A stretch of 60,259 nucleotides of DNA, filler included, from Sluysia triapertura (Eukaryota), in NCBI GenBank assembly GCA_046118255.1. It is 4 parts of 4 records of this genome, joined end to end, with 100 filler letters (N's around TTAATTAATTAA, not from the genome) between each part and the next. Parts side by side here need not be neighbours in the genome. Positions count along the whole stretch, not along the records: positions 1 to 16,933 come from JBJNIA010195598.1; 3 more parts are not named here. The stretch is one strand, 5' to 3'. Position 1 is the first letter of the stretch, and each line of letters opens with the position of its first letter. Shown piece after piece: positions 134 to 35,949 of this stretch. The position numbers and the translations under genes are program-made. The notes under the pieces were generated by a model. That model searched no databases. It was not told where the DNA came from and saw only the letters and a list, made by a program, of their open reading frames with translations.

Positions 134-2502
134 TAAAACAATCTGTTGACATGTAGACATAACAACTGTTGAGATTAGATTAGAAATTGTCTTTAGTAGT
201 TTCCGATCCGATATACAACTCATTCTAGAAGTAATTAAATAAAATGGCTGCTGCAAAATTTTCAGGCAATCTAGATTTTTTAATCAATAAAAAAATTTAT
301 TTTAATATATTATAATTATTAAATTTATTTTTGTAAAGTATAAAACTTATACATTAATCGTAAAATTGGTCTAATTTTATTAGGAATAAAATAAGGCCTT
401 TATTAAAAACACAATTTCCTTCTACAGGTATCTTTATGCAGCTTTAAAATAGCATATATTCATTTTTATGAACCTTTAGAAATGTCAATCATTGATGATT
501 TTATTGAACCATACAATCACGATAATGCTCAATTAGCTACAACGAAAGGCCTCAAACAATGATAACTCCAGACAATAAATACGTAATTTAAAATAAAACT
601 TTAAACATAATACGAAAAATAGATCCATATTAAAATAATAAAAGGAGAACAAAATATCAAAGATACAATTATTTCACATCTTATTACTTTAGAAAGTGTG
701 AGAAGTTAATATTTATATAAAAAGAAACATTTCAAGACATCAGAAATACTTCAAACACGACAGAATAAAATGCATACTTAGTGTGTGTGCTGAAAATTTC
801 ATTAATTGTTTTATTTAATGTAACAATTGTTTAAATAATTAATTTTGTTTTATGTTGGTAGATAACTTGGTAATGTAAAATTTTGGATTATTAGGCGAAT
901 CACTACAAAGTGTTTGGTTGTGAGACCGGGAATTGATTGGAAGATGAGAGAGTATAAAATAAAGACTTCTAAATTTTTAACGCACAATAACAACAATGAC
1001 ACAATTATGCAATTATCCAGTGAAGATCCATGCACAGGGTAATGTTCTTGTTTATTTTTTATTTTTATTTTATTATTTTAAAATTAAAATAAGGTAATTA
1101 ATTGATTTTATTAAAGGGAAGATAATTGTATACAAAATCATTCTAATTTTGTTTATTCTTATCATCTATTTCCTTATAAATCTGAATTGTAATCTTTTTG
1201 GTTTCATTTCACATTCAAAAAGAATTTTACAAGTCTTCTTCTACCTCAATGAATTTTTGTATATCTGTGAGTATCATTGTATCATATATTCATTAAAAGC
1301 ATTTATAGGTATAGTTATTTCTTCTACAAAGTTTATCTTTTCATCAATTCTGAAAACTTAGTAAGACACATTATCAAAATGTATAATCTCAACAATAACA
1401 ATATAAAATGGACAAATTAAAATTAAATGTTAAATTAAAAATTTATCGAAAATCTTATAGTCCAATTAAAATTTATATCAAAGTTAAATATAAATTTGTA
1501 AAGTTAGTCAAATATATCGAACTTAAACAAAACTGTAAAACTTCTAATAATATTCAATGAACTATATTTAAACTTATCATAAACTTAGATAATGAATCAA
1601 ATTACCAAACATAAATATGAATTTTTGATTTACTCGGATTTATTTTTCGTGTTCTTTAGATTTATTTCTGATTTTAAGGCATTCGAAAATGTTTATTTTT
1701 AGATTTATTTAAAATCAAGATATTTCTTATTTATTGTTCTATAATAGATACCAACCATTTTAATTTACATATTGTTTACTAAAAATGATGATTTGGGCTA
1801 AATCTTAGCCACAATGACACCTTCTACCTTATTTACATCAAGTTACTATTATTGTCATACATTACTTGACTACATACTAAGTTTTAATCATTCATTTTTG
1901 AAATAATCTAACTTAAAAATGTACCTTGTTACTATGAGATCATAATTCAATTATATTCAATATTGAATAATTTACCATTCACAAGTTCTCTAACCATCAT
2001 CATTCATTTGTATAATTCTATATTATTATTCAAATTATATTATATTGATTTTCTATCTTTAATTTATATTAATAAAGACAGAATTATATGGTAATATCCA
2101 AAAATAAGCAATTTAGGCAATATATTATACGGTATTTAATTACAAGAAAATTATGGATTGTAATAAAATAAATATATAGACACATTGCTCTTAATTGAAC
2201 ACATAAATATCAATACACATATCTAGGTTATATATATTCACATTTTTGTTATTATTTTACTAATTTAATATAGATTATTCAATAAAAAAGTTAAAATTTT
2301 ATAGTAGAAAATGTAATTAAAATTAAAAACATTTTAAAAAATGAATTAATAATTGGTCAAAGTTCAACAAATCATAATCTATAAAGTAGTTTAATATTTA
2401 TGAATTTTTATACATATGTAGAAATTCATTTTATTTGTGATTTGACAAATTAATGTGATAAACAATTTATTGATTTATTTTATTTTCGTTTTTTTTCTTA
2501 CA

Positions 2503-3651
2503 ATGTCAATAATTGATTTTACAACATCACACAATGTATCAATGAAAGAAATTAATGATTATTACAAAATTGGATTTAAACGATTAGAAAGTTATTATTT
2601 ATCATGGTATTTACCTATGACAATATTTGTGGGTTTTTTTGGTAATATCGGTTGTTTGATTTTTATGATAAAATCGAAATTATTTCCACGTAATGTATTA
2701 ATTTGGATGATTTGTATATCAGTAGGTGATTTATTGATCTTGTCATTAGATGCAACCAGAATGTTGTTAAAAGTTTGGTTTAGTTTTGATATTCGAGATG
2801 TAAATGATTTTATGTGTAAAATACACACTTTTCTATCGAATTATTTCTTTTATTGGTCCAGTTATATGCAAGCTTGTATGTCAGTTCAGAGATTAATATT
2901 GATGCTATATCCGTTACGAGCTAGAACATTCTTTACCACTAAATTAGTAGTCATAATATGTTGTGTGTTTACAGGTCTCATTGTTTTCCCGAATATACCC
3001 TATTTAATATACTGGGATGTATCGAAGAAGAAGCATGATTGTGAACCAACATCGGATTATTTGTACACTATCATTACTATTCTCGATATAATTATCTGGG
3101 GATTTATGCCTCTATTGACAATGACAACGTCAACAATAGGTATTAGTATATCTGTATTTAAGGCATCAAATGAACGACGTGAAATGTCACAACAAAATTC
3201 CAACCTAATTATTCAACCGGATAACAGTAATGATAACAACAATATCAAATCCAGTACGCACTGTTCCCAAAAAGATGGTGCTTGGCATGTTACTCGTTTA
3301 TTAATAAGCATGAATATGCTGTATTTACTAAGTGCTTATCCGTTATTAATTTACCAGATTTATTTGAATGTTGGCGGTAACAAAGTTAATCGTATAATAC
3401 CTCAACAATTACACAAAACAATTTATTACACATTACGAAGCATTTGTTATGTCAGTTCAACATGGAATTGGGTGTTTTATTTCTTCGGTGGTAGAAAATT
3501 TCGACAAACAGCGTTTAAGATTTTACATAAGCAATTGTGTTGTTTGTGTGGCACTCATATATCATCTACAGATAATACGGTATCACTACATGGAATGTCA
3601 AAAGTAAATAATAAAAATTCATCTACAAAATTCACCAATACCAATATGTAG
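2503..3651 (+). CDS. Class A (rhodopsin-like) GPCR, FMRFamide/neuropeptide-receptor-like, intronless
   Basis: 398-codon ORF, first ATG at 2503, seven hydrophobic segments. Motifs: TM1 GN (FFGNIG), TM2 D (SVGDLL), Cys at the top of TM3 (FMCKIH), DRY-equivalent SVQRL...YPL, TM6 P (SAYPL), TM7 NWVFY followed by GRKFR helix 8. Confidence 0.93.
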   Translation: MSIIDFTTSHNVSMKEINDYYKIGFKRLESYYLSWYLPMTIFVGFFGNIGCLIFMIKSKLFPRNVLIWMICISVGDLLILSLDATRMLLKVWFSFDIRDVNDFMCKIHTFLSNYFFYWSSYMQACMSVQRLILMLYPLRARTFFTTKLVVIICCVFTGLIVFPNIPYLIYWDVSKKKHDCEPTSDYLYTIITILDIIIWGFMPLLTMTTSTIGISISVFKASNERREMSQQNSNLIIQPDNSNDNNNIKSSTHCSQKDGAWHVTRLLISMNMLYLLSAYPLLIYQIYLNVGGNKVNRIIPQQLHKTIYYTLRSICYVSSTWNWVFYFFGGRKFRQTAFKILHKQLCCLCGTHISSTDNTVSLHGMSKVNNKNSSTKFTNTNM

Positions 3652-4210: not shown

Positions 4211-4683
4211 TGTCATCACAACCCTCTTAAATGCTATTAAAACACTTTAAAATCATTTAAGAATCTTTTAAAACATTTAAAACCACTAAAAAATAGTTAT
4301 TTTCGAAAAAAGAAAATTCACTTCTAAAAATAGAATAGAAGCTTCTAGAATGTTTTAGAACATTCCATCGATTACTATTGGCAGTATATAAACTAGCATC
4401 AGTTTAAATTAGTCGCCATCTATTAATCGTCATTTTGGATTTAACGACAACTTTCATTTTATACATTGTTACAACTTTATTTGCGTTGTTCCGCAATTTT
4501 GATTTAATTCAATCGACATTTTGGTGATTCATTTCAATTTTCCTTATTCCATGAAAGAATAAACTTTGTTAATATTAATAATAATCAAAATATTAAAATA
4601 TACTTAAATTTCAATTTTACTATTTTATTGTAAGAACCCAGATATACTGAGGGAAAAAATTTAACTTAAACTTTGATCCCACA
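4211..4683 (+). repeat. HSE-promoter module copy 1 (LTR-like)
   Basis: Alternating nGAAn/nTTCn array 4338-4365, ATTGG, TATATAAA 4385, TCAGTT/TTAGTC, CGCCATCT, and a 3' CCCAGATATACTGAGGG motif. Candidate ends TGTCAT...ACA, no TSD. Homologous to 4852-5328, 21055-21385 and 40880-41340. Confidence 0.7.
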
Positions 4684-4851: not shown

Positions 4852-5328
4852 TGTCATAATAACACTTTAAAATTATTTAAAACTATCAAAAATTAATTAA
4901 ATCATATAAAACGCTTTAAAACCATTTATTAATCTTTAAAATCACTTTAAAAATATTTATTTTCCAAAAAAGAAAATTAGCTTCTAGAACATTCCATCGA
5001 TTTTCATTGGCTGGTGACTGGTATATAAACTAGCATCAGTAAAATGAAGATCGCCATTTTGGAAAAAACAATTTTTCGTCAATTTCCTTCAGTTTACTGT
5101 GTGATTCGAGAAATTGTGAAATCTTAGCAATCGTTCACAATTTACAGTTTTTCATCGATTTGGAAATTATCCTCCGGGTAATATCAATTCCATTTTTAGT
5201 AATTTATTTATTTGTAAGGCGATTCCTAAGTTGAAATCATAAAATTCAGGCAAATTTTATATTATTTTGTAAAGTTTTTTAAGTCCCCGATATATTGAAG
5301 GGTAAAATCCACTCAAATTATATTAACA
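4852..5328 (+). repeat. HSE-promoter module copy 2 (LTR-like)
   Basis: CTTCTAGAACATTCC-ATTGG-TATATAAACTAGCATCAGT-CGCCATTTT, plus the 3' motif CCCCGATATATTGAAGGG at 5285. Begins TGTCAT like copy 1. Confidence 0.7.
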
Positions 5329-5534: not shown

Positions 5535-6786
5535 TGTTACGGAAGCGTCCTCTTTACGATATAAGACTCTGCTCAAAAATATTTTGTTGTATGTTAAGAG
5601 TTAGCAAAATTTGGCACCCGAATTGGGACCAACACAAGTTAATGAATAACGTTAAATTTTGACATAAGTTGAATGTTGAAAGTATTAAAGATAAAGTATT
5701 AAAGAGTGAATTTTTGAGTATTTGGACATTATAAACTGAATTTAAGCATTAAATTTATAAGTTAAATTGAGATTAAGCATTCAATTTAGGATAATTTTTA
5801 AGTTGTGTCATTTTAGAAGTAAGAATGTTATTATTTTTCGAGTTAAGTTAAATTTTAGTATTAGTATTTGAATTTTTGACTGTTTTAAGTCATTTTTTAA
5901 GCATTGAATTTAAATTTTTATAAGTTTTTACGTTGATTTGATAAGTTTAGGTAAGTAAGTTTAAGTAAGTTTAATATTAAATTTAAGTTGTTTAATTTTG
6001 AATTTTTATGCCATAAATGTAAGTTATTTTGCATATTTTTTTGATTAAGTTAGGTTTCCAGTAAGTTTAAGCTTTCGAATCGTGGATTTTAATAAGTTTA
6101 AGTGTTATATTTTGAATTTTTTAAGTCATGAGTTATAAGTTGTATCGAATATTTTGATAATTAACTTAAGTTTCTATTAAGTTTAAGTTATGATAAGTGA
6201 ATATTTGGAATATTTTTTAAGTATTTGATAAGTTATAGTTGATTTTTTTAAGTTTTCATTTAAGTTTAAGTAAGAATTTATAAGTTTCTTATGTATTTGC
6301 ACTAATTTTATAAGTTTTGTACGATTTTTATAAGTTTGACACTACGTTATATAAGTTTAACAGTTATTTTAAGTTGTCTTATAAGGATTTCATTAAGTTT
6401 TCATAGTATTTATTAAGTTTCATTTGATCATTTGAATTTTACATAAGTTTTAAGTAGGTTACATCCATAATTTTGATAAAAGTTAAGCATACAAATACGA
6501 TTTTCCTGCGATTTTATTGAATTAAAGTATCTTTTAGAATTTTATCTAAGTTGTTTATACGTTTTCTTGATTTAATAAGTAAATTTTATAAGTTTTTGAT
6601 CTTTTGTTAGGTTTTATAAGATATTTGACGATTTTTAAAATTACCCCACCAAGTTTTATATTAATTTTGATAATAATTTTAAGTTTATTTGACAAGTTAC
6701 CTATGTTTTGAGTTTGATTACAAGTTTATTTTATAGTTGTTAAGTTTAAGTTTATTGATAAAAGCTTCCCGATTAAGTTTTGTAAG
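5535..6786 (+). mobile_element. Possible LTR retroelement 5' end: short TG..CA segment, tRNA-Lys-type primer binding site, degenerate TAAGTT-rich internal region
   Basis: TGTTAC...TTAGCA (5535-5606), then TGGCACCCGAATTGGGAC (5612-5629), a 15/18 match to the tRNA-Lys PBS TGGCGCCCGAACAGGGAC. This is followed by about 1.1 kb of C-poor sequence full of TAAGTT words. Confidence 0.5.
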
Positions 6787-6944
6787 TGTTAGACTTCGTA
6801 AAATGGACTGACCGGGGATCGAACCCGGGACCATCGTCTACGCAGTCGATGCTCTACCACTGAGCTATCAGCCCCGTCTAACAAATTCATTTTTATTAAA
6901 TTCAAGTTTACCAAATGGCACTTTTAGGCCTTTTTACCCCAACA
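6787..6944 (-). mobile_element. tRNA-cassette mini-element copy 1 (pseudo-tRNA-Ala-like at 6804-6874)
   Basis: Highly similar to 18087-18246 and 23053-23214. Has an A box (TAGCTCAGTGG), a B box (GGTTCGATCC), an acceptor stem GGGCTGA/TCAGTCC with G3:U70, a TTTT terminator and a non-canonical anticodon arm. Confidence 0.8.
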
Positions 6945-7810
6945 ATTCGCTCGCGCCTACCATTTCATTTGCGCAATACGAATATAAACACTCAAACCTT
7001 ATATAGGCAATCCAAGAACTTTCCGCAAACTATTGGATATGATGAGAAAATGCATCATATACTTAAGGGCTTCCTCGGTCTGAAAAATTTTCCATTTAAC
7101 AAATTAACAAAATCATGGTGGCCTCAGTTTAATTTCCTCTTACGATGACTATATATGCCAGAATACAACTTTTTAATAGTTGAAAAACCCTAATTCGCAT
7201 CCTAGCTTTACTGGAAATACCCCGGAGTCGCTTCTGACAGACTGAATAAAGTTGATAATATGTCTGATGCCCTTTTGTGGCTAAATGGTGTTAAAGCCGG
7301 TAAACGCGCAAAACTTCAGACATGGTGGACAAAAATTCGCCGATCAATCCTTAATCTGTTCCGCAAATATAAAATCAGTGTCAGCTTCGTTTATTGTGAG
7401 GAACACATTAAACTGAATGTTAAATATGACATTCTTGGAGATTTCGAAGTTACTTTTAATCGGTTTCATAAAGATAAAGTGGGGAAATATCTGCATGAGC
7501 TGATTAATCATTCCAACACCAATTCCGGGAAATCCCGTAAAGTCAAAGGTCGCTTTGTCGAAAAGTCCTCTATCTGGTCGTCATTTCCCCTCCAATTAAG
7601 AAACCAGTGTTGGATTTTCATGACTAAAGCCAGGAAAAATATTCTGAAACTTAATTTTTGAACCAAAAAAATTCTACTTAATCTTCCTCTTACCTGTCGT
7701 TGGTGTGGCTTCGAGCGAGAAACTCTTGCTCGTATATTATGTCTTTGTCCACATAGAGTCAGTGGCCGTACAGTAAGACATAATAAAATTTTAGGTGTTT
7801 TGTGTTTTGA
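6945..7810 (+). mobile_element. Degenerate RLE-type (R2/NeSL/R4-like) non-LTR retrotransposon, C-terminal region
   Basis: ORF fragments 6915-7148 and 7260-7661 continue past a stop into CRWCGFERETLARILCLCPHRVSGRTVRHNKIL, the CCHC zinc knuckle plus RHN motif that precedes the restriction-like endonuclease. Frameshifts and stops are present. Confidence 0.75.
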
Positions 7811-7919
7811 GGGCGTTTGTATTCAATTTTAGTCTTAAGATTTGATGATATCGTCATGTTTTTTCGTTAGTCAGGTATAGTATGATTTTAATTTTAAATT
7901 CTTTTAACAAATTATAAAT

Positions 7920-9250
7920 CTTTATATTTTAGACTTAAATTTAATAAATTTAGTTTTAAAAATGTCAAGAATTTTATCATCGTTTATTTTATAAAAATCT
8001 AATAAATACATGATCATTACGTAATTCTTTCTAAAGAGCAAAAAACCTTTTAATATACTAATACGAAAATTTAAGACAATAAGATTAATTGACATATATT
8101 TGAACAGCGACAAAATTATATTTGAATTTAAAAAATTGTTTTCCACTTCTATTTCTTCTTCTAACCCCTCGTAGCGTAGTATGCACTATTGCGCTTCACC
8201 TTCCGGTTGACAAATGTGTGAACTAAAATATGTCAAGAAATGTAAAAAATTAGCACTCACGCAAATTGTCTCTAGGTTTAGGACGCCTTCGACAAAACAC
8301 TCTGGAAATTCTTCAACTATGCATTCATATATCAAAATCTTGCGTCGCAGTACTTTGTTGGAATATTGGTACTGGTTCACCAAGTTTAGATCTTTAAATG
8401 AGTTTCCATACATAACAAAGCTTCTGATCCTTGAGTTGTTTAAATAAGTAACATTTGACCCATTGTTGATCATGAGGATAATAATATTTAGGCATAAATT
8501 GGTCATGTCTATCAGCACTTTAATAATTGTTTGTGACCAAGCTAATGATGCAGTCTTTCCCTGTACTGTACTTAAATCTACGTCATGTAAATAACAATCG
8601 TGATCACGATCATAAAATCTAAACACATATCTGTTCCGTAATTCTCCTCTTTGACTATCGTGCGCGGCTTCGGCATTCATACAAGCTACATCAACTGAAA
8701 ATTGTTGATACGATAAACACAAATAATCAGAATGAAATAAGAAACTTTTAAAATATTGTTCAACATCTTTATCGATTTTCTGTCGCTTTTTATAAATCTA
8801 TGGAACTGTGGGGAAACCATCTTACGAGATGGATACGAATATTTCATGAACGCTTCATAAATATTTTCTGTGATTGTTTGTAAATGAACTTCGTAATTTT
8901 GTATAGGAAAAATAGAGTGTAATCCGAAATAACTTAAAATGATATTGATCGATTTACTAAATTGTTCAATCTCTGAAACGAAATATAAGTCTGCTGTTGA
9001 GGGATGAAATGGATAACATAAATCAATTAAAACTAGATCTTCCGATGAGAGTGATTTCATTAAATTATAACAAAAGATATAATTGTTGTCTTTTACATTT
9101 TCATATTTTTGAAAATACACGTTTAATGATTCTGCACTGGTAATAAGATTTAGATCGCCAACAAACAGTTTGATACATAAATCTAATTTGGTATACTTCG
9201 TTTTAATAGCATTATTGTGGTTTATGTTTTTTTATTTAAAGACAATAATA
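7920..9250 (-). pseudogene. Multicopy EF-hand-like gene family, copy A (N-terminal part)
   Basis: Overlapping ORFs 8686-9120 and 8186-8722. Contains the EF-hand-like loop FRFYDRDHDCYLHDVDL. Peptides align with copy B (FVMYGNSFKDLNLVNQ vs IVIYTNDFNRFVFVNQ) and copy C (ITENIYEAFMKYS vs IKENFIDSMKYT). Confidence 0.6.
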
Positions 9251-9424
9251 ATTTTTATTTTTATCTTAAAAATTTTTCTAATGTTTATTCTGTAATTAGT
9301 AGTAAATAGTTCGCTAATACTGCATTCTTGCCATTGGTTGTCCAATCACGACTCTTATAATACACTGTACAATTTTTGCGTCGTAATTGGATGTTGGTGC
9401 AAATAATTAATTTGTGGTATTGAA

Positions 9425-9486
9425 CCACCATCAATAGTGACATATGAATAAAAATAATGAATAAAGTGTCACCATTGATGATGGCG
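9425..9486 (-). other. Conserved long hairpin upstream of family copy A
   Basis: Minus strand reads GCCATCATCAATGGTGACA...TGTCACTATTGATGGTGGT (about 19-bp stem with G.U pairs). Homologous to 13111-13173. Confidence 0.7.
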
Positions 9487-10924
9487 ACAACCAAAGTAAT
9501 TTGATTTTTAAAATTATTAGTTGATTGATAATAATAATAACAATAATAATATTGTTATTATATTATTAGTAAATAAAAATTAATTTACATAAATATTTCT
9601 GTTGATTAAAATCCACATGAACTTTTCTTTCAATATCTAATATTTCTTACATATAAATAAATAAAAAAAGAGAAACAGAAACAGATGGCATCTGTGAAGG
9701 AGCAACGGTAACGAGATATACTACGTATCAGTTATCGTTGTTACATCACGGCAAGACAATGAATTCTTTAAAGCTGTAATAAATTTGTTGAGAATTCTTG
9801 AAGTTAAATGGTTTGAATTGTAAGTGAAATAAAGAATGTTAGAATAAATTCTTAGAATTTATTTAAGGTTTATAATTGAAAACAATATATATGCATTGAA
9901 TATAATGGTTTGAAATACTTATTGAAAGGTTGGAGTTTATTTAATTTAAAATACTATTACGAAATAAATCTTAGCGTAATTGTAGTGTCGTTAAAAATGA
10001 GTATTGATAATGAACATGTGTAAATGAAGTGGGTTTAGTTTGGTGTAGTTGGTTAGAGATTTTAATGTAAATGTTTTCTATGTCTGAGGTACTTGTTAAC
10101 GTTGTTAAATGGTGTTTATATATTTATGGTTTCTGTATTATATATTATGGTTATGGTTTGTTTGATAAAATAGCTTTTGAGTGAATGTTGTGGATTATTC
10201 GGGATTGATTATCAGAGTATGTTGTGATTCGATTTGAAAAAATAGTTTCATTTAAACAATAATTTTAATATTTATTAATATTTACAAATTTTTACATTTA
10301 AAATTTTACTTATTTAATTTATTAATAGAAAATTTTTACAATTTTTAATATATTTAATTTTAATTTCAATATTTAGTGTTTGCACACAATAATATTTAAA
10401 TATCTCATGGACTATTTTAAGACTATTTTATAATTATCCAATTCAACCTTTTGAAAGCGGAATATTTCAGTTTTAATTGGTTTATTTAATTTTATTAAAA
10501 TTATATTTATAATGACTAAGATCACTTGATTCATTTTCAGATTAAAAATTTACACTTTCGACTTGTTTACTTTGCTATTGATTGTTGTTATCGATCTACT
10601 GTGGTACTGAATTGAAATATTGACAATTAATGAATTAATTTTAGAAAAACATCATGAATCCAGCTCGAGAAATGGTAGAATCGGCAGTCCCTCGTCTAAA
10701 TTCTAAAGAAAGTGGCACAGTACGCATTGATCCGTAATGTTTTAATGTCAAAAGTACAAAAGAACTTAACTTGAATTTTTTTCAGCTATTGCGAGGAACA
10801 AGTGCTGCGTTATCTAAAAAATCATAAAATTTGCTCTTATGAAATGTGTACCCCGTTCTGTGGTTATGTGGAAATTCCATTCCAATTTTTAAATACCTTA
10901 GTTAGACCTTCTATTTTTTGGGTA

Positions 10925-11130
10925 TCATTAATTATAATTATATTATTACTAATAATAATAATGATAATAACAATTATAGTTGTAATAATAATATTATTAT
11001 TATTAATATTATTATTAATTTTAAATAATATTATTATTAAATTTATTATTATTAAATTTATTTAATAATAAATTATTATTAAATAATTATTATTAATAAT
11101 TATTTAATAATTATTATTATTATTAAATTT
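10925..11130. repeat. Degenerate (AAT/ATT)n low-complexity tract
   Basis: About 200 bp made almost entirely of AAT/ATT triplets. Confidence 0.85.
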
Positions 11131-11139
11131 ATTTCTAAT

Positions 11140-12200
11140 ATCGTTATTATTATATTTAACATTAGATTCATTACGAACACAATTATCGTCGTCCATGTAC
11201 AAGTAATTATGAAATTGGTGCTTAAGGCACAGAATTTTTATCATTATTGAAAGTCTTAATATAAAAATTGCACGAAAACTTTTTATTAATTTTACAAACA
11301 AAAAGAAAGTGTTTTACACACTTGTTCAATAATCACTTTCAAGACAAAACTTAACAAAGTTTCCTTCATCATAGTAATCAAACTAACTAGATTGTCCAAG
11401 AGTACAGTCAGAGATGCTGTTACTACGTATTTGCAGTTCACTGCGCGGGTCATGTCTCGAGCGATACATAGTCCTGGATAACCTATTCTGAATTATTGAT
11501 TTCCGGATTCTGCCTAGGGCTGAAAAACGAGTTTAATGCACCTAAGTAAATCCTTATAACATGACACACAAGACGATCTTTAGTACTACAAAAACTAAAA
11601 ATTACAAGAATTATAAGAACTAAAAAGGCAGAATGAATAGTTATAATAAAAGAGCGGTTTTATAACGAAATTTGTCATTGGAACGTAAGTTTCCGTAAAA
11701 ATTGCCTTAATCACTGTGCAGCCGTTGTGATACATATATTCGAAACATCAAAATTCGTATATCTAATTTGATCGAGTTATTAATTACAATAAAATTTAAT
11801 TTTACAATTACAATAGAAAATTCAAATTTAACGTTTTTAATTACTATAAAATTTATTTCAACACACTCATTCAGCTCTTGCATGACTGAACTATATCGTT
11901 AACAGCATCTTCAATATCCTTTTCTTTGGTATCACGAGCGACACTATAAATTGAATCGAGGTTGCAAAGGTAGTTTACTTACGAACCGCATTAAAAGTAT
12001 CGATTGAATATAGATTTTATAAAGTGACAGATTCTGCAACAACTTTGTATAATTATTTTTATAATGGATTTTTAAATAATCTCAAACGGGGTAATAAGTA
12101 GAAAAGCTTTGAGGATTGTTAAACCGATCCAAATTAAAAAGATGTCAGTAAACAAAACTTTCTTGATAACTTTTAGGGTTAGTTTTAGAAAATATTTACT
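11140..12200 (-). pseudogene. Multicopy family copy E (middle part), split by a solo LTR
   Basis: Exact 14-mer TGTGCCTTAAGCAC (CLKH) shared with copy C at about 48236. DTFNAVRK here aligns with NMFNVVRR in copy B (about 14465). Confidence 0.5.
11323..11863 (-). mobile_element. Solo LTR (541 bp) with 4-bp TSD CACT
   Basis: Ends TGTTCAA...TTCAACA (imperfect inverted ends, TG..CA). Flanked by CACT at 11319-11322 and 11864-11867. TATAAAAA on the minus strand near 11660. Confidence 0.75.
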
Positions 12201-13110
12201 GATTGTTTGAAAATTTATTAAAATAACAAATTAAACAATGAAATTTGTGTGGTGCCGAACCTATTACTTTTAATAAATTTTATTTAGATTTTTCCTTTAA
12301 TACAACAAAATCACATTCACCTTCAGAATATACAAAGCACATTTTAAAAACATTTTTTTCACATAGTCCCACATCAACATAATCAAAATAACATGTTTTT
12401 AACATCACACAACCACCTTTTTAGATTGTACCAAAACATAGTCTATAACTTATCTTCTTTACATTCACTAAACCACACTCTTTTCAATGCACTTTTAAGT
12501 CACAATCTACTAACATCCAAACATTATTTTCATTCATAACATCAATGTATATTTAAAAATTCACATAAAACATTTATATATTATCTCAAAGCACTTAAGT
12601 CATAAGTTTTTAACACCCAAACTTATCTTCAGTTAAGACAATTAAATATCATTTAAAAAACCATTTAAAACATTTTATGCATCATCTAATAATATTAAAA
12701 TCACAATTACACCTTAAACCATCGAACACACATCTTTAAGTCAATCCAAAACATTCCACGCTTGCAATATTTTTACAGTTAGCCTCTAAATTCACCGAGA
12801 AACATTAGCTCAACACTTTTAAAACATTCAAATTGCTTCCTTTTAATATATAGTCACACATTAATTCTTCTACCACCTCTTTCTACACATTACATGTTCT
12901 CAGTAGAAGTCATGTAAGAAGTCATATCCTTAAACTTTAAATATGTTCATAAAAAAGAAATTTATTGAAGAAAGATCGTGTTCTTTCGTATTCAAAGGAT
13001 TTATGCATTTTTGGATTAATATTATTATTATTATTATTGTTATTATTATTACCATCTTTTTTATTCTAGATTATTTTGATGTCTATTTTATTAAAAATCA
13101 ATTTGGTAGC

Positions 13111-13173
13111 TACCACTATCAATGGTGACACTAATAATTCACATATACAGTTACCGTGACTATTGATAGTGGT
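13111..13173 (+). other. Conserved long hairpin upstream of family copy B
   Basis: ACCACTATCAATGGTGAC...GTGACTATTGATAGTGGT with a perfect 12-bp outer stem. Preceded by an ATT tract and TTTGGT, as in copy A. Confidence 0.7.
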
Positions 13174-13439
13174 ATTTTGTTTAACAAACAGACATTTAAT
13201 CTATTCATACTACTTTACTAAATGCCGATTGATGACAACTAACTACAAACTTACTTCATCGTGTTCAAATGACTGCCCAATTAGAATTATCGACATTACG
13301 TACTTTTTATGTTTTGATTAGGCAGCCATTCACAACATGAGGAGTATTGACCATTTTTAGTTTGTAAGTAGTACCTTATTATTATACATTTATTGTCATA
13401 ATTATAGTAGCAGAAAATTCTAAATTTTGTGTTCTGTTT

Positions 13440-15420
13440 TTCATTTAGAAAATGAATTTTGAAAGCAATATTTCATACAACTTTATTAATTCTACAATTA
13501 AATCGAAATTTCGTGCATAGTTAATTAAACTATTTCAATATTTATCTGGTCTTATTAAAGTGTATTTAAAACCGTCTACGAATTATAGAAATCATGAAAA
13601 TATTATTTTAATTAGTCAAAGAATTGAATCACTTGGTTTTGCTAAGAGTTCCGTAAAGAAAAATCAAATGTTTACCACATTACCATACATTACAATGTCT
13701 TTTCATTATTTGTTTAATAATTTCAGATTTTTGCATCATATGAGATACGATGAAGTGAATGGTATGTTTTATAGTTATTCAATCGAGTCTTGGTTTGTTT
13801 CACCTTGTTGTGCTTTATCACGAGATTTGAATAAATTTCTACAGATTTATAAAATTGATTCTGATTACCGGCCTCTATACTGACATGACAGATTATGATG
13901 ATAATCGAAAGTGTTCCTCAAAACTATTGGACTTTGATTACTCAGAAATGAAAATATTGCACTGTCTTCTAACTGAAGACTTTTGGTTCAAATATTTTTT
14001 GTGCGTCTTCACAGTAAGAGGAGGTATTCAGTGCTGGTTTCTGCTGGTGCGATTAAGTTATTAGATGTCGATCAGTTTAATAATTAGTAGATCTTATAGG
14101 TCGTCCTATCAAGGCAGTATTAAATTAAAAATGAATGATAAATCTAAAGCTGATGTTTATCCAGTTTTAACAGCTGGTATAGTAATATACACAAATGATT
14201 TTAATAGATTTGTTTTCGTAAATCAAACAATGTTATATGATACTTTAAGAAACAAATATATTTTTTCAAATATGATTTTCAATTCCAATTGTTCAATATT
14301 GATAAAGCAAGCAATGAACCATGGAAACCATAGAAAAAATTGATGAAATTCTCATTTATAATATTTATCTACATGTTCTTCATCCTAGACTCGATGTTAA
14401 TGTTTCAAAACAATTTACTAATCAAGATCTAGAGTAAATGATTACTCGTCTGGATAGCTATGAAAATATGTTTAATGTAGTTAGACGTGAAATTTGAGGA
14501 CTCTCATCACCAGTTTCAGTAACAAAACTAGATTAAGCATTGACAACATTATCGGAATATTCTCTAAATGCTATTCGACTTCAGAAGTTAAAGTATCAAC
14601 CAAAAATCTAAAAGAACGTGCCTTTTATGAATTTATCATGTCAATTCGTACAGAATTATCTGAAAACAGTAAAGACAAATTTGAGATGATTCAAGGGATA
14701 TTGAGTTTTTAGTAGGAGGAGATATAATTAGTCGTATTGATTGGATTGATCCAAATCAAAATGTAAAGCTTGCGCCAATAGTTACTAGTATAGTTTATGA
14801 TTACTCTAAGTCATACAAAAGCATGTTCGAGACCGCTATATAAGCTACAGAAGATAATGTATTGAATATAAAAATGATTACGCTTTTTGAGATTCTAGCA
14901 ATAAATGTAAGCATAAAGTTATTTATAAATAAAATTCGACCAATTAACTTATCTCGCTTAAACAAAGATGATAAAGCTGAATGTAAAAAGGGCTTGAGGA
15001 AGTGCCCAGTACATCTTCATATTGATTTTCACGAGAAACAACACGGTAACGACGTATCTGAGAATCTAAGTTCTTTCCGATCGTCCGCTGTAAATTCGAT
15101 TCGTCGCAATTTTTTCAAAAGTTTTCTTATTTATTTCTATTACATTAACAATAATTTGATTTCCGATTATTTTTTAGATAGCGAAATATGGTCACAAACA
15201 AACTGCATATACGGAACAAAGTCATAAATATTAAATTTTTATATTTTGATATAGCAAATAAAATTTTATAAATGTATCTTCATTCATTTATTATTTATAA
15301 ATTACAAATATTCCCAATTTCGTTAAATTTAATAAAAATTAACTTAGAAGTAAAAAGTTTCATAAATCAAATAAATTCTTTTAAAACAACTCGACTATGA
15401 TTCACATGGAAGTTATTTTC
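13440..15420 (+). pseudogene. Multicopy EF-hand-like gene family, copy B (frameshifted)
   Basis: Chain of same-strand ORF fragments (13560-13883, 13855-14064, 14065-14343, 14494-14712, 14862-15227). Clear DNA identity with 48390-49080, e.g. TTTTGAGATTCTA.CAAT.AATGTAAGC, ATTCGTCGCAAT and GCATATACGGAACAAA. Confidence 0.7.
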
Positions 15421-15443
15421 TAAAAGAAAAACCATAAAAACTT

Positions 15444-17033: not shown

Positions 17034-18086
17034 TTCTCTATAGTTATCTTACTATTGCAGTTCATCATAATGCCTCGTCTTAGTTCTTTAATAACATTCA
17101 ACTTATTCTGTTATCCTAAGTTTTGACCCTTATTTTTCACTAATCCCAACAAAAGTTACAACGATAACCTTAAAGTTAAAAGATAGGATAACGATGATTA
17201 TATATACCTTCATCTTAAAATTGAAAGTTACCATATTAATGATGTCAATTATAAAAACTATAACCTTAAACCCATAAACAATGGCAATCATAATGATAAC
17301 TATAAAGACGATAATTGTGAAACTAAAAGTTATAATACCATTCAATACATCAATAATGCGTATTACAAATAGGATGAGTCTAAGACATAATTGATCGCAG
17401 TTTGCCATTCTGTACCGACCAATGTAGTTTATGTATTGGTAATGGAATCCTATGTTCTTATTCACACAATAATTGAATTGGAAGCTCAGAGGAACTTCGG
17501 ATCAATTTGTGATTGGCAATCTTCTAGAGTGAACGGATTTTTAAAAGACCTTCTGGTACGGATTTCTAGAGGCGTGGAAAATAAACAGTATCGAAACGAA
17601 CAAGTAACTCTTAATTTTATGAATAATCATAACATTATAAATTGTGTTTATTTTTAGGTGCAGAACATGGTAGTGTGAAGATCGTGTGCAGGACCCTTTT
17701 TGTGCTTAACAATATTAAAATAACATTATCTTATATATTTTTATAAAAGTTAATAAATCATTGTTTATTTTAGAGTTTTTTCTAAAAAAGTTTATTTTTA
17801 AAGAAATTTTTATAATTCAATTAAACAATTTTCATAAAATTTATCAATTAAAGTCAAAACGGAATTTAATATTTCATAGATATACAAAACCACAACACAA
17901 GGATTAAATTGAATCGAAATTTATTAATAGTCATGATTCTCTTTGTTTGCTTCAACATAACTGTACCATGATCTGTAGTCAGTATAATGAATGGTTATAG
18001 AACCTATAATAACATCTATTTAAATTGCGACATTTTGTCATAATTAGACCATCTTGTAAATGATTAACATTATATTATTGATTAAA

Positions 18087-18246
18087 TGTTAGACTTCGTA
18101 AAATGGACTGACCGGGAATCGAACCCGAGGCCATCGTCTGCGCAGTCGAAGCTCTACCACTGAGCTATCAGCCCCGCCTAACAATTTCAGTTTTTTTATT
18201 AAATTCAATTTTACCAAATGGCACTTTTAGGCCTTTTACCCCAACA
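18087..18246 (-). mobile_element. tRNA-cassette mini-element copy 2 (pseudo-tRNA at 18104-18174)
   Basis: Same TGTTGGGG...GTCTAACA unit. Flanks share only AAA on both sides. Confidence 0.8.
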
Positions 18247-19621
18247 AAATTTATATAATTTGTCATTTAATATTTAGTGAAACTAAATCAAAGATGGAAA
18301 CACGAATGAATGAATCAACAATTAAAATTTGTTCTAACTTGATTACATTATTTATTTATTTCGAATACCATAATTAATTCATTGAAAACAAATATCGACT
18401 TGATTGAAGTATGTAACTTAAGAAGGTTGAAAGCGGTCTCCTAGCACAGGATGTACGTCATCTTTACAATTCTTACTAAATGGCGTATATTCAATAACAG
18501 TTTAGAATAACTTTGGCGACTGTTTTAACACAACTACACGAGAAATTAATTAATCCGAGAATTACTGTCTTAAACCATTTAAAAATCAAAACGAAAATAA
18601 TTAATTTAGAGCATTTATAGCAACATTGACTAAGTAAATTAGCATTTATAAGGAAACTCTTTTTAGCAAAATGCACAATGAGTGTACATAAAATAAAGAA
18701 AAATGATAATAAAATAAAAACGATATTACTACTACTATGACTAAATATTACCATTATGAACGATTGTAAAATATTTTAAAAAAGCTGAAAATGTGAAAAT
18801 AAAATGTTCCATTGTTTTATAGGGGTGCGATATTTAAGAATTTGTGTTATGACGTGAAGAGATTAATGTGTTTCGATGAATGCATTGATATTGATTGTGT
18901 AGCTAAAATGTAAATATTGTTTGTGGTTAACTTTTGTTATGTGTGGATAGATAATTTGGTATAAAATTCTGGATTATGAGGTGAAACACTACAATAGATC
19001 AGTCGGTTTTCTTTTGCATTTGTCAATAGAGAGCTTTTCTGATTTCGCGTAATTACACAGATACGACTAACATTAACCAAAACCAATAAAGGTACCCACC
19101 ATTCGGTTATTCTATTAAAAAGTGTCCTTACACTTACAATCTATTTGTGAAGTACAATTAATTCTAATATTGAAAAATTCCCAGTTTTTCTACGAAATAG
19201 AACTTCTTCCATGATAATATCCCAATCTATCCGTAGTATTATCAGCTTTCGTAATTCATCGACATCATTAATAAAACTAATAAATCCAACTTCGATTTGA
19301 GAAATAAACCGAATAACAAAACCATCTTAAAACATTGTTCAATGTTTGACCTTCTTCAATGAAGCACAAAATTAGATCGCAAAACTTTAATACTAATGCT
19401 ATAAAAGAATTAATTTACAACATAAGTATTTCAAAACAATAAACGTTGTATTTCTAAAAAAAATCAAATAAAGTTTCAACTGTAATTTAAAATTACAAGT
19501 CTCATTAAACGTGATTTATTATTGGAATTTTCTACACACTAATTAGTGATCATATAAAAACACGAAATACATTTGCTTAATTAATAAAATTAAAAGCATT
19601 TACATATCACCAAGCTATCCT

Positions 19622-20091
19622 TCAATCAGTTACAAGTACATAAATCATACTAAATTAAAATATAAACTTAAAAACCAAACTAACCAGTATAAATAATAAA
19701 AAAATGACAAAATATAAAACACTATTTTACCCCAACTTTCAAATACTGCTTTATTTAACTGCTCTGCATTTAGAATTGTTGTAGGATCATATAATCCAGC
19801 ACCGCGGATTAATGGACGATTATAATAACGATGAATGTGATACGCTAGTAAAGGTAGATTAAATATAACTGTACCAAATTGCCCAGCTATAATAAATGAC
19901 AACGTCATCAAAGCATGAATGCCATATTCAGGTAATATTAATGGATTTAAGCCTTTACAGACATCGATCGGATTTTTATAATCTGTTTTCAGTTCATCAA
20001 ACGCTATAACTAAATAAATCGTAAAAAATATCAATACAATTGATAATAACAATGCTGCTATATAACAAAATGCAACAAATCCAAATGCCAT
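19622..20091 (-). CDS. cni: Protein cornichon (ER cargo receptor), two exons 19685-20091 and 19622-19649
   Basis: Contains IAFDELKTDYKNPID, LNPLILPEY and GLYDPTTILNA. Removing a 35-nt GT-AG intron (19650-19684) gives the canonical C-terminus FFYYLYCMIYVLVTD*. Confidence 0.96.
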
Positions 20092-21054
20092 CACTCAAAT
20101 AAAACTTTAAATTGAAATATGTTAAAAATATGTAGTTAAAAAATATGTAATTAAATTCCTAAATATTTATAAAATTAAAAATATACGTATAAATCAAAGT
20201 ATAACTTAGAAAAATAAAATGTAAAAACAATTTTTAATAAAAATTATTAAAATATATTAATTCAGAAAATCTTAATTGAAAAATATAAATTTATAAACTA
20301 AAACAAAATATATTGGAAATAATTTCTATAAAAATGTGATTTAATAGAAATATTAAATATTTTAATACTTTTTAATATATTTTAATGTATTTTTTGATAA
20401 TTATTTACGAATATTCGTTCAAACAACTATGATCATGAAAATTAAATATGTATATTTTACGTATTACAAAACTAATATTTTCAAAAAGCGATGCATGAAA
20501 TATGAATAATTAATATGAATTAGTTATTACAATTATGTAGTTACATCTTGATATGAAGTATACTCAACTTCTCACTCTACATTCTTAATATCTTTTGATA
20601 CATTTCAAACATAAGCTTATACCAATTCTAACACATCCCAAAGCTACCAATTTTAAAATATACTCATAAATAAACTTTCAGACCGTACTTCTGAAAATCT
20701 TTATTTCAATTTTAGATGTATTAGTATTATTATATATTAGTATTTGTATATTTTATTTTAATTTCCTTCAGTTTAGTCAAAAGTCTATAATATATAAATT
20801 GTAAAATATTAATATCTATTACAAAGTACTTCCAAGCGCTTATGATAAAATCAATTACTATAATATTGCTGTGATAATATAAATTTTATCAGGGTCCCTT
20901 ATACAAAAAAATTCTGATATTAATCTTCAAAATTAATGAAAATAAATTAATTATTATAAAAATGTATTAGGAAAAATAAAAATCATTATATAAGTGGGAA
21001 TTATTTGACAATTACAAAATAAATTAAAATATTGCAAATTTAAAATTAAAGCCT

Positions 21055-21385: not shown

Positions 21386-23052
21386 ATAATTCGATGAATA
21401 CCTGTAAATACTGTAAATAATACGAATACTAATATTATATAAATAGTTAAAAGTAAAACAAAATATCAATAATCAAAATATATCAAAATATACTTGATAT
21501 ACTGACTATTGAAATTATTAAGGTTTAAGCTGATCAAGATAATAATATTGATTTTAACAGATTTTAAAGACGCAACAGTATTATTATTTAAATAAATAAA
21601 TTTTTTACACAGTTTTTTATTGTGCAATTTTGATTTTTTGCCTTTTTTTACTATTTTTGTTAATTCGTAGTAAATTTGTATATTCTTGTATGAAAATTCG
21701 TCAAATTTTGTTTTAGCCGGGGCGCTCAAAACCCTAAATCCGGCCCTGGTAATCCGTTATATGAAAATAATAATATTTTCTTGAAATTATCGAAATTATC
21801 CATGAATTCGATATGTATTAAACAATTTATTCGACTACTGAACAATACATCGCATCGAATTGATTATCAAAGATCATCAGTACAAAGTTTAACCTCATCG
21901 GTTGACAATTTAATACCCTGATCAAAATACTTAATAGAATCATTAAATAAACAATTAGACAGTAATATTCAGGTAGAGATGTATTAAATAGTATGCGTTT
22001 GATTTAAATTATCAACATTCAAATAATGCTTCTTATCTCTGTATTATCTTATATCAGAATTTATAATGATGTATCTATGAAGATTTATTTCCAATATTTA
22101 AATGAATGAATAATATGGAGCACCTCTAATTTAATTTAAGAGTTTATTTTGGGCTTGGTGGTGACAGAGATGACGAGCATAAAGAAGACATATTAAAATA
22201 CATGTTAAAATTTTTTGTAAATGATTAAAATATTATTTTAATTTATAAATTTTATTATTTCACATCATACAGAAATTAATGTTATTTGTGGAGTGCCTTA
22301 TTATATGCTCATGGTGGTAATTTTTGTATGTGAAAGGTTGAACTATTACCATATATGTGTAAATTGTTTAAATTAGAAAGATACGAAAATTTTACTCTTG
22401 AAAATGCAAAGTTACATTTGCGATTTAATTTAATTAAAAATTGTTTGGTTTAATAATTTTATGAAAAATGACTGTACATGAAAAAACAACATACGAATTA
22501 AAGTATAATTATTAATATTGAGATGTTGCGCAAATAATGTAAAAATTATTTAATTTTATTTAGTTTTCTGTAATGTAAAGTTAAATTTGTGCATGTTGTA
22601 ATGTTTAAGCATAATCAAAATATATCTATCAGATAAATGTTTTTAAGATATAAATTCAAACAAGTTATTAAAATAGATGTATTAAAAATTTTTATGGAAA
22701 ACAAATTTGACATTTAATTAATTTTGTGTTTTCTTTAAGTTGATGTATTATTTGAATAGTAAATATTATTGTGATTATGGTGTTACATTTAGTTTTTCTT
22801 ATGTTAACAGATAAATGAATTGTCTGTTACAAATCCAAATATATTTTGGTAATTTCTAGGAGACGAAAAATTAGCAGTCAATGGATATTAACATTAAAAT
22901 TTAATTATTAAAATTGGTCAGTTTGTAACCAGCTCAAAAGAATAAGTAATTACTTTTACACTTCCAATTTCGAATCTCCTTGGAAATTATACAATTATTA
23001 TATAAGTGATCACATTTTTGTCAAATATGCAAGAGAAGAAATCAATAAAAAA

Positions 23053-23214
23053 TGTTGGGGTAAAAGGTCTAAGAAGTACCAAGTAGTATAATTGAATATA
23101 TTTAAAAAAATGAAATTGTTAGACGGGGCTGATACCTCAGTGGTAGAGCATTCGAACTGCGCAGCGATGGTCCCGGGTTCGATCCCCGGTCAGTCCATTT
23201 TACGAAGTCTAACA
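23053..23214 (+). mobile_element. tRNA-cassette mini-element copy 3 (pseudo-tRNA at 23126-23197)
   Basis: TGTTGGGG start. TGTTAGAC (23117-23124) and GTCTAACA (23207-23214) are perfect inverted repeats bracketing the tRNA-like unit. AAAA on both flanks (possible 4-bp TSD). Confidence 0.8.
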
Positions 23215-24022: not shown

Positions 24023-26620
24023 TATTATTATTCAATAATTAGTATTCAATTATTACAATATATTTTCAGTAATAACTTACAGAGGCACACAGAAATTAAT
24101 AATAAATAAACAAGTCTAATGCCATAAAATATGTATTTGTTTAGTAAATAATATATCACATGGACCAATCGTATTACTAAAAATAAATTTGAGCTGGCCT
24201 TTAATTCCATTCAATAAAGTATTATTATTGATCGCTTTATGTATATGTGATTTAAAATAATAATAATAATTTAAAAAATACAAGTTTTCTCACAAAAATA
24301 CTTTCTTAGTACAACAATTCAAATATAATTTAATAATAATAATAATAAATAAAACAGCAAAGAGTAAATAAAGAATGTTAAATGTCTCATTTCAATATCT
24401 TATTGGCACATTTGGATAGGGAAGAATGACAGTATATAAAATCAATAAAATATTTGATAATGAGAATGGAAGAAATTGAATACTACCTAGGATCGAGTAG
24501 ACGGAATTACATGGAAGAAGCGATAAATGGAGGTCTTTAAAAACTATTTCATTATTATTATTCAAACATATTTCAATAATATTTACAAGTACAAATACAA
24601 ATTTACAGTTAGAAGAAAACACTTTCTACTGAACACGTATTCCGATAATTCATTTGTCATTTTAATAGGAAGTAATCGAATTTTTTATAAATGTTATAAA
24701 TATAAATATAAATCAAGTATTACCTATAACTCATTATAATAATTGATTCATTTTTTACAATTACGTATAGAAAAAATTAAAGCAACCAATCAAATATCAA
24801 TTACTAAAAATAGAGCCCAAGTATTTAAAACAATAACAAATTTCATTGAGTATTTTAATGAAATAATAAATAGCTTTATAGAAATTCATGATCGCTGGAC
24901 AGGACATCTGTAGCTTTATATGAGTAGAGAATTAAATATGCTTAGAAATTGAAAATCGTTCCTATAGCAATAGAAACTTACATCTAATTTGTCATTCTGC
25001 TCGTATTTCTGCATTAATTGAATAGCGGTGCAGAATAAATAAATAAAATATGATCATTAATGTATTCTGTGATTACTGCTCGAACATCACAAAAACTTCT
25101 GCAACAGACACCACAATGTTTACTAAAACACCAAATAATAATACTCATACAAAACACCTTTACATTTGTTTGTATAGTAACACATGTGACTGCTTCATAT
25201 CCAAATTAGGTCTGTCTTATGTTTCTTGTCATGATTACATGCATACACACCTTCCAATTGCATTATTTCAAATTCGGAATGTATTTATCAATTGTGGAAC
25301 ACTTTGTAAATTGAGTCATTTTTACAATTAAACATATTTCATTTGTAAAACATGATACAAATTGATTATATTTTTATATAATATTAACAATGAATATTTC
25401 GTATTTCCTCATTTATCATTTCCTTCGAATACTCAAATAAATCTGCAACAATGTCAAGATAAAGCTGTGTTCTGATTGAAATACGTTTCTATTTGCAAGA
25501 ATCACTTTATTACGATGCTGCAATAACGATGCGCTCGGATAATTTCAAAACATGCACCATTTTAAATAAATTTTTAATATTGTAAAACATATAATAATTC
25601 ATATAAAAATATTAAGTTATTATTGATGATATTTTCAGTTGTGCGTTAATCATTGAAATATAAATTAATTACTGTTTCATGCACACATTATTATTATTAT
25701 TATTATTATTTAATAATTGAATTATCTAAAATCTCTAATATTTCTTTAATTTTCTAAATCAATTCGTCTTCATCCCCCTCGTGTCCAAAGAACGATGATA
25801 TTATGAATATTAACAATAACAATAAATGTTTCTGTGTCTAAATAATTATAATTTCCAATAAATAATATTCATTTATAACTTAATCTCAAATTTAATCTAT
25901 CCAATATACAATATCAATCAACAACATTGATTTTAAAATAAAGAATCGAATTTTATTGAATGGAATTTCAAATATTGGCTTGTAAATACGTAAAAATTCG
26001 ACAAATCTTCCATCGAGAAAAAACAAAACAACTGATTAATTAAATCGTAAGATTAATCGATTAAAATAGACGGACTTATAATACAGAAACATATTCGCAA
26101 GCAGAGCTGCAATAAGTGCAATTTTCTCATTTCAGCTTTCTGTGAATATGTTTCCAAAATGTATAATCTAATAACGATTTAATAAATCAATAAATTAAAT
26201 AAAAAATAATTCCACAAATTATCAATAAGAAATCGATCGTTTTAAAAAATAACAATTCAATTACAACATTTGTTTACTACTTAATTATCATTATCAATAA
26301 ATAAACTTACATTCATTTTCTTCGAGCATATTTGAAATAGTCAGTTATAACTTTTCCATTTTTCATAATCACATTTAGTTGTATCAATCGATTTCCACAT
26401 TAAATTCTGTGGTTTTATTTAAGGTTACATTTAAATGCATATTACGAGTTTGAAAATTGCGCGAATAATAGTACAATGTGTCTTTAAATGTCAAGACACA
26501 ACAACAATAACAATATTAACATCAATATTAAAAAGGTCATTATGTTTAATAATACTTTTGATATGTACTTTTATTACATTTACTCAAAAAGTGGCTGAGT
26601 AATCATTGAACTTTTTCAAT

Positions 26621-27139
26621 TTATGTGGTACATTTTAATTCGCACAATTTTTTATAATAATCCCTTTCACGTTGCAACTGCGAAACTATCGAGTTTAAAT
26701 GTGCAATCTCAACCTCATACATTTTTATATGAGCATCATTTTCGAATTTGAGGTTTTGTTTGCGAGAACGACTTAATCGTGCATAATGACGATTTTTCAG
26801 TGTCCTTCGTTTACGTTTGATTTCTTTTAATCGATCACAATTTTCTTGATTTTTAAACAATAAATTTAAATGTTTTATTGACATTTCTATTAATCTTTCA
26901 TCGTTTAAATCGACATCGATTTCGTTCAAGGTTTGATTCTGATCATGATCTTGATCTACACCTTCATTGTTGATATTTACATCGCCATCGAAGACACTTA
27001 CATCAGGTAGATCATCGATCAAGTCAAAATCTGATGATAATAACAACTTATCTAAATATTCATTTTCAATATTGAAGCCGCTTTCATTTAAGCCCGTCTA
27101 AAATGCAAAATCAAATAAAATTACATTTAATTGTTTCAT
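26621..27139 (-). CDS. Maf-family bZIP transcription factor; predicted exons 27125-27139 and 26621-27097
   Basis: Maf extended-homology region (DERLIEMSIKHLN) and basic region KRKRRTLKNRHYARLSRSRK with the Maf-type Tyr, followed by a zipper ending ERDYYKK. The upstream frame is open to an AG at 27098. The ATG lies in a 15-nt first exon beyond a 27-nt GT-AG intron. Confidence 0.9.
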
Positions 27140-35790: not shown

Positions 35791-35949
35791 ATAATATAAA
35801 CATTAAAACTGAAAAACATAACATCCCAAAAGTAAAGGCTCAGATTCAATAAGAGCATAAATGTTCCTTAAAATGCTCTTTTTGAATCCACATATTTTCT
35901 TAAAAAATACAACAGCAACTTCAATTAAATCTGCTTTACAAACCATTTT

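Follow-up and report, generated by a model that had tools for sequence, protein, structure and literature searches.

Two copies, A and B, of a unit of about 1 kb that carries two hairpins lie back to back in the genome of Sluysia triapertura (assembly GCA_046118255.1), within a window, meaning the whole stretch of DNA analysed, of 60,259 nucleotides including filler. To the reading that we favour we would give an even chance: the hairpins would form a duplicated, lineage-specific candidate microRNA cluster, and A and B would have arisen by an old inverted, back-to-back duplication and now lie 3.6 kb apart. The feature is best filed, provisionally, as a candidate lineage-specific microRNA cluster. 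A preliminary description had placed a single hairpin ahead of two supposedly related coding sequences and had offered a pre-microRNA-like hairpin as one of its possible explanations; this is the option that fits best, although neither an Rfam family nor Microprocessor motifs could be found for it.

The window, at about 25% GC, comes from an AT-rich animal genome. Its uninterrupted frames include a GPCR, a cornichon protein and a Maf-type bZIP protein. The cornichon is 55-67% identical to the best 120 of 538 proteins, molluscs being the best among the matches listed, and it sits on a long, unsupported branch in the tree; the host is a fast-evolving animal.

Table 1. Features of copies A and B, with positions counted along the window
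Feature	Position	Strand	Description
Hairpin 1, copy A	9424..9485		Arms 9485-9467 and 9442-9424; folds best on minus; 19-position stem, 19 pairs, 24-nt loop
Hairpin 1, copy B	13112..13173		Arms 13112-13130 and 13155-13173; folds best on plus; 17 of 19 positions paired, 24-nt loop
Candidate mature strand, hairpin 1, copy A	9467-9488	+	If read from plus
Candidate mature strand, hairpin 1, copy B	13130-13109	-	If read from minus
Hairpin 2, copy A	9341..9391		z -2.1 on minus; core of 12 bp with a 27-nt loop, lower stem poor; lies 32 nt past hairpin 1
Hairpin 2, copy B	13253..13345 (core 13276-13322)		z -4.5 on plus, -4.0 on minus; 31-bp stem, 23-nt loop
Hairpin 3	9692..9751	+	z -4.8 on plus vs -0.4 on minus; copy A only, no counterpart in B
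Interrupted ATT tract, copy A	9529..9551	-	23-nt word identical to that of B
Interrupted ATT tract, copy B	13029..13051	+	23-nt word identical to that of A
GC-skew zone, copy A	9780..10240		G 81 and C 17 on plus in 9801-10200; ranks second in skew among the window's 400-nt zones
GC-skew zone, copy B	12290..12900		G 16 and C 84 on plus in 12341-12740; ranks first in skew among the window's 400-nt zones
Neighbour of A	7922..9231	-	Broken coding remnant with 181-, 203- and 87-aa frames; weak RRM-like piece at 9174-9088
Neighbour of B	13879..14238	+	Decayed DNA primase small subunit (PRIM1) fragment; deletion and in-frame stop
3' part of B	14861..15429	+	Remnant matching 48368-49104 at 63-70% DNA identity

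The shared unit

Read on the minus strand of A and the plus strand of B, both copies present the same order of elements: a zone of 460-610 nt that is poor in G, an AT-rich stretch of about 200 nt, an interrupted ATT tract, the word TTTGGT, hairpin 1 and hairpin 2. The unit shared by A and B is larger than first noted, at about 1 kb. The two top 400-nt skew values of the window (0.68 and 0.65) belong to it and have the same orientation to the hairpins in A and B; these GC-skew zones are left unexplained by the microRNA reading. The 23-nt ATT word occurs exactly twice in the window, once upstream of each hairpin 1. The preliminary description had run the ATT tract, TTTGGT and the stem together; TTTGGT does stand 4 nt ahead of the stem in both copies, and the stems of 19 positions and loops of 24 nt are there, but the ATT tract lies about 30 nt (A) or 50 nt (B) from TTTGGT and does not adjoin it. 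The flanks of A and B resemble each other only marginally, with 1 and 5 of 100 shuffles reaching their score, which would fit an old local duplication.

Two other uses of the surrounding sequence were tried and rejected. Neither skew nor AATAAA served as a sign of the direction of transcription, the four host genes being inconsistent in this respect and AATAAA being common in the window. A mitochondrial insertion was also discarded: the flatworm mitochondrial code gives no long frame and a relaxed tRNA scan returned noise only.

Conservation of hairpin 1

The hairpins 1 of A and B are real and homologous. Copy A folds on the minus strand at -31.3 kcal/mol (z -6.5) and copy B on the plus strand at -26.5 kcal/mol (z -4.0), with none of 200 shuffles as good in either case, and the opposite strands fold more weakly (z -3.5 for A plus and -2.2 for B minus). 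The arms are identical at 34 of 40 positions, as against 2 of 22 in the ungapped loop (Fisher p 4e-9); aligning the loop with gaps raises its identity to 9 of 23, and the arms still differ from it (p 5e-4). The stems have been kept and the loops have not, just as first noted. The longest run identical between A and B measures 15 nt and adjoins the loop.

Fourteen of the 19 pairs are invariant between A and B, one differs on both sides, two differ on one side to give G.U, and two are broken in B (G.G and A.C); one further G.U pair is common to both copies. The double-sided change is the C:G (A) to T:A (B) pair already pointed out, which is present as described. The accompanying statement that most other differences yield G.U pairs holds for two of the four, with the shared G.U pair in addition, and fails for the two broken ones. 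Taken alone, the C:G/T:A change carries little weight, being expected by chance: given three differences per arm its hypergeometric p is 0.42, and 230 of 500 shuffles scored as high. The proposal that the structure was under selection is nevertheless supported as regards the arms, on which selection appears to have acted, because of the contrast between arms and loop and not because of the compensatory pair. The G.U events were also said to favour the gene-sense strand; counted against A.C events, the bias is not significant (three of four events in hairpin 1, p 0.31; six of eight when hairpin 2 is included, p 0.14), and the strand is therefore not shown by it.

Hairpin 1 occurs twice in the 60-kb window, where a model built from both copies found no third (next score 18.3 bits). 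Its pattern had no match in metagenome contigs. The one match in viral contigs was rejected as a chance match without a stem, and a pattern covering hairpins 1 and 2 at A-like spacing had none in prokaryote genomes.

Hairpins 2 and 3

A second hairpin follows in both copies, its core in B beginning 102 nt beyond hairpin 1. Among paired sites, neither hairpin 2 has a better match than the other, the two being identical at 22 of 34 positions, and on sequence alone only 1 of 120,076 and 2 of 120,056 positions outscore the counterpart. The core of 12 pairs holds three double-sided changes and a shared U.G; the p of 0.067 for these changes is to be read with the knowledge that the arms were chosen by eye after the alignment had been viewed, and that any two core-aligned hairpins show paired changes. 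Hairpin 2 is probably homologous between A and B, and no more than probably, because neither nhmmer nor plain local alignment picked it up (63 of 100 shuffles equalled the alignment score) and because its arms were picked by eye. On no single strand is the basal stem good in both copies. The hairpin 2 of B is the most pri-miRNA-like of the set. Altogether, five of the window's nine long-stem, large-loop hairpin loci fall inside units A and B.

Coding remnants beside the hairpins

Broken coding sequence lies beyond the hairpins of each copy. Between the stem and the first long frame lie 348 nt in B, within the 300-400 bp originally given, but 193 nt in A. With 0.0007 frames of 203 aa expected, the length of the frames beside A is not a matter of chance. 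The RRM-like piece reaches an E value of 0.039, and the seven weak matches to this remnant are all RNA-binding, among them hnRNP A2/B1, SUP-12, DAZAP1 and a yeast nuclear RNA-binding protein. In the remnant beside B the PRIM1 match (E 1.2e-7) spans residues 114-239 of the solved chain, and two other B frames gave no primase match. The 291-aa read-through of A had no relative among 1.84 billion representatives or in the PDB, and its 181-aa frame and a 148-aa frame at 48.5 kb had no match in a search that covered longer proteins only. Atlas matches stayed below 0.9, viral relatives were not found, and a single-sequence predicted fold had a pLDDT of 32.6.

The preliminary description took A and B to lie upstream of two copies of one gene family. 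We could detect no such kinship: all nine pairs of A and B frames scored within shuffles (48-96 of 100 as high), as did the DNA alignments of the two ORF regions (44 and 34 of 100), a DNA profile of B and its relative at 48.4-49.1 kb had no match in the ORFs of A, and hhalign of these ORFs against the B/48.4-49.1 kb family returned a probability of 0.13. The remnants do not look related and would be unrelated neighbours, although the last frame of A may conceivably be very distant kin to B and the 48.4-49.1 kb copy. Nor does the suggested linkage of a hairpin model to the ORF family emerge, the hairpin being absent near 48.4-49.1 kb and present beside A, whose ORFs show no detectable kinship to that family. 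The option of a cis element belonging to the mobile unit of that family loses its basis, because no kinship between the A and B ORFs could be detected and the copy that is truly related to the 3' part of B, at 48.4-49.1 kb, is without the hairpin.

A broader form of the same idea would make the skew zone, the ATT tract and the two hairpins the cis-acting end (leader, packaging signal or origin) of a non-autonomous mobile unit, with the ORF remnants as variable host-gene cargo; we regard this as possible though doubtful. Both units are indeed followed by broken coding sequence in the same orientation, PRIM1 in B and the RRM-like piece (E 0.039) in A, yet A and B share no 3' end. The B-related copy at 48368-49104 carries an extra CCCH-finger-like insert, as changing cargo might, but this sole clear relative of the 3' part of B has no hairpin that we could find (best other score 18.3 bits), and another decayed host-gene piece, from a tRNA synthetase (41.9-42.4 kb), likewise has none beside it. 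These units hold the window's two strongest skew zones, and folding and G.U pairs lean to the strand of the remnants; against this, no terminal repeats, target-site duplication or CTRR were seen near the hairpins, none of the 121 frames scanned belongs to a transposase, helicase or reverse-transcriptase family, no RepHel remnant was detected, and the flank similarity is barely detectable (1 and 5 of 100 shuffles), in keeping with an old local duplication. It is improbable, in particular, that the 1-kb unit is the end or origin of an undescribed non-autonomous element that collects RRM, PRIM1 and CCCH pieces and has none of the hallmarks of Helitrons, MITEs or LTR elements.

Hairpin 1, brought along by the duplication, might alternatively act as DNA, its arms being inverted protein-binding sites at 24-bp spacing or the shrunken terminal repeats of a DNA transposon. 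We consider this unlikely. The loop has kept its length exactly (24 nt in both copies) while its sequence turned over, each arm is partly palindromic (with a 9-pair stem within the arm of A), and the G.U bias is not significant, all of which suit a role at the DNA level. The letters kept past the stem, however, lie on one side only (TTTGGT, besides 2 nt into the loop), both copies go on to a second hairpin whose arms are different, and the DNA folding energies are modest, at -10 to -13 kcal/mol. The flanks of hairpin 1 also share no target-site duplication. Trimming the stem by one base puts TA at both ends in B alone and not in A, and in both copies the word TGGT occurs 4 nt ahead of the stem and again as the bases that end it. 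The stems do not look like the collapsed terminal repeats of a MITE, the case named beforehand as fatal to the first proposal, there being no shared direct repeat at them and the homology running beyond them.

That the hairpin has no present function, as an inverted repeat older than the duplication and kept paired by local arm-to-arm repair, is very unlikely: a single compensatory pair is no more than chance predicts (p 0.42) and neutral simulations from A retain the 17 pairs of B in 13-24% of runs (those from B toward A succeed in <0.1%, a direction that demands mismatch repair and so is no fair null), but repair inside each copy would give the arms of A no reason to stay like those of B while loop and flanks diverge (34 of 40 as against 2 of 22 or 9 of 23).

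A candidate microRNA cluster

Should the microRNA reading be right, a locus of about 1 kb with a small microRNA cluster would have been duplicated long ago to give the inverted, back-to-back copies. A long transcript over the hairpins would be cut by Microprocessor and Dicer to release a 66-nt precursor and then a 22-nt duplex, and the loop, being discarded, would be free to change. Hairpin 2 would be a second, more diverged member of the cluster, possibly decaying in A. Both the processing and the targets are what we infer for such a locus.

Canonical animal microRNA genes have two arms of 20-27 nt, about 19 pairs and a loop of at least 8 nt; the curated ones have arms of 22 +/- 1 nt, 19 +/- 1.6 pairs and a median loop of 15-16 nt; several invertebrate groups have longer loops, and U is over-represented at positions 1 and 9 (PMC11701709). 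Flatworms and other invertebrates are noted to have longer hairpins (PMC12553114). Modelled as a 22/22 duplex with 2-nt overhangs, hairpin 1 leaves a 22-nt loop and a 66-nt precursor with 16-19 pairs, in both copies and on both strands; across the best hairpin models the precursor is 65-69 nt with about 18 pairs. The hairpin 2 of B forms 17-18 pairs, while that of A falls short with 12-15 of 20. Hairpin 1 has the arm, pair and loop geometry of a canonical animal microRNA gene, as well as its conservation of arms over loop (34 of 40 vs 2 of 22).

As to the strand, we lean slightly toward A plus / B minus, which would imply convergent transcription and is opposite to the strand originally preferred, because of the identity at the seed end and because hairpin 3 folds only on plus. 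The 3' arm product read in this way has U at positions 1 and 9, and the copies agree at its positions 1-13 and at 17 of 22 overall, so that its seed would have been kept while its tail drifted. On the strand first preferred, the 15-nt identical run makes up the tail of the 5' arm, and A and B differ in the seeds at both arm starts, though a register 3-5 nt into the 3' arm does keep a seed. The folding energy of hairpin 1 and the lean of the G.U pairs point to that strand instead.

The Rfam scan of the window at gathering score returned tRNAs only, the best microRNA matches reaching 14-26 bits against cut-offs of 45-70. Well-placed Microprocessor motifs (basal UG, apical UGU/UGUG, CNNC 16-18 nt downstream) were found in none of the eight hairpin/strand models; such motifs have a moderate effect each and are lost in some lineages (PMC11701709). 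In hairpin 2 no 2-8 seed is kept at the arm starts. Short words from the arms hit no animal microRNA in a full-text literature search, of a kind that misses microRNA databases and most supplements, and the arms were unmatched in the four supplementary files of PMC3840308 that the search covered. Our confidence in the microRNA cluster remains middling because it lacks an Rfam family, the motifs and a hairpin 2 seed, because the hairpin 2 of A is weak, and because the skew zones are unexplained.

A microRNA cluster would add one or two candidate families specific to the lineage of a fast-evolving animal that has no close relative in the protein searches made, and would be useful for annotation and as a phylogenetic marker, while not surprising a specialist. 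The finding would matter more if the unit were the end of a new kind of gene-capturing element.

Comparison with known systems

The 19-bp inverted repeat pair of hairpin 1 recalls a MITE or a terminal-inverted-repeat remnant. The hairpin measures 62 bp, however, its homology extends for about 1 kb to one side, and there are two copies in 60 kb. Helitrons that capture gene fragments, according to PMC12001565, start with TC and end with CTAG, with a short hairpin at the 3' end. They resemble the present case in having a hairpin near fragments of unrelated host genes, but here the stems are 12-31 bp long with loops of 23-27 nt, and the test for a Helitron end failed, with no CTRR within 25 nt after any of the eight hairpin/strand models.

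The nearest likeness is to animal pri-microRNA clusters, from which A and B differ in lacking UG, UGU and a well-placed CNNC and in keeping a seed in hairpin 1 only; the mir-2 Rfam model scored 15.2 bits in the window against a cut-off of 45.5. Duplicated multi-hairpin clusters, those of mir-71/mir-2, are described for flatworms (PMC3840308), and the following is shared here: hairpins lying close together, two copies of the cluster, arms that are kept, and loops and spacers that vary. By analogy, kept arms, free loops and spacers, clustered hairpins and a duplicated set make up the pattern of paralogous microRNA clusters.

Intact coding frames and hairpins

The four uninterrupted frames of the window encode a cornichon protein, a rhodopsin-family GPCR, a Maf-type bZIP factor and a Cys-containing protein that belongs to no family and is probably secreted; that all four run without interruption suggests an intron-poor genome. 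Four further long single hairpins fold at -17 to -29 kcal/mol; that at 26081-26165, which follows the Maf frame at a distance of about 450 nt on its downstream side, looks precursor-like.

Features of the window
Feature	Position	Strand	Remarks
Rhodopsin-family GPCR	2446-3651	plus	uninterrupted
Cornichon	19645-20094	minus	uninterrupted
Maf bZIP	26621-27097	minus	uninterrupted
Cys-containing protein	52007-52624	plus	uninterrupted
Single hairpin	18448-18493	plus	long
Single hairpin	26081-26165		long
Single hairpin	35841-35890	minus	long
Single hairpin	58608-58690	minus	long
tRNA-like repeat, copy 1	6783-6945
tRNA-like repeat, copy 2	18083-18254
tRNA-like repeat, copy 3	23045-23214
80-120-nt motif	4297-4406, 4982-5059, 40877-41009		about 80% alike
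Two-copy repeat	1-118, 51347-51468		identity within 78-85%
Two-copy repeat	817-908, 18907-18994		identity within 78-85%
Two-copy repeat	43240-43361, 43695-43828		identity within 78-85%
Satellite	5750-6400		period about 116
tRNA synthetase fragment, class II	41939-42436	minus	Pfam E 1.7e-21
Relative of B's 3' part	48368-49104	plus
Broken frames, terminal Cys/His motif	7206-7832	plus

Repeats

The three copies of the tRNA-like repeat, each of about 165 nt, are 87-92% alike. The anticodon loop is odd, and the tRNA-like sequence is flanked by an 8-nt inverted repeat, starting with TG and ending with CA, that carries one mismatch in one of the three copies; the repeat is probably a SINE of tRNA origin or else a very small element bounded by terminal repeats. 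The 80-120-nt motif (folding energy -29.8 kcal/mol in one copy) contains the words ATTGG and TATATAAA, which we take to be promoter-like. The satellite is decayed and skewed, with the word ACTTA abundant on its minus strand (33 occurrences). In the pattern scan for hairpin 1, the 19-position stem with a 24-nt loop, the match at 3001-3048 of viral contig L001, between a GroEL-like gene (identified by eye) and other genes, lacks the stem and is an unrelated chance match.

Broken gene pieces

The tRNA synthetase fragment, which adjoins an assembly gap, is another remnant of a host gene, and hairpin 1 is absent from its surroundings. The relative of B's 3' part (the coding remnant neighbouring hairpin copy B) has about 220 nt more than that remnant; this extra stretch codes for a CCCH-finger-like motif in an open frame of 148 aa, for which database searches covering longer proteins and viral ones found no relatives. 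The broken frames at 7206-7832 gave a weak zinc-finger match (E 0.046) as their sole one, and the Cys/His motif that ends them may be the knuckle preceding the endonuclease of R2-like retrotransposons.
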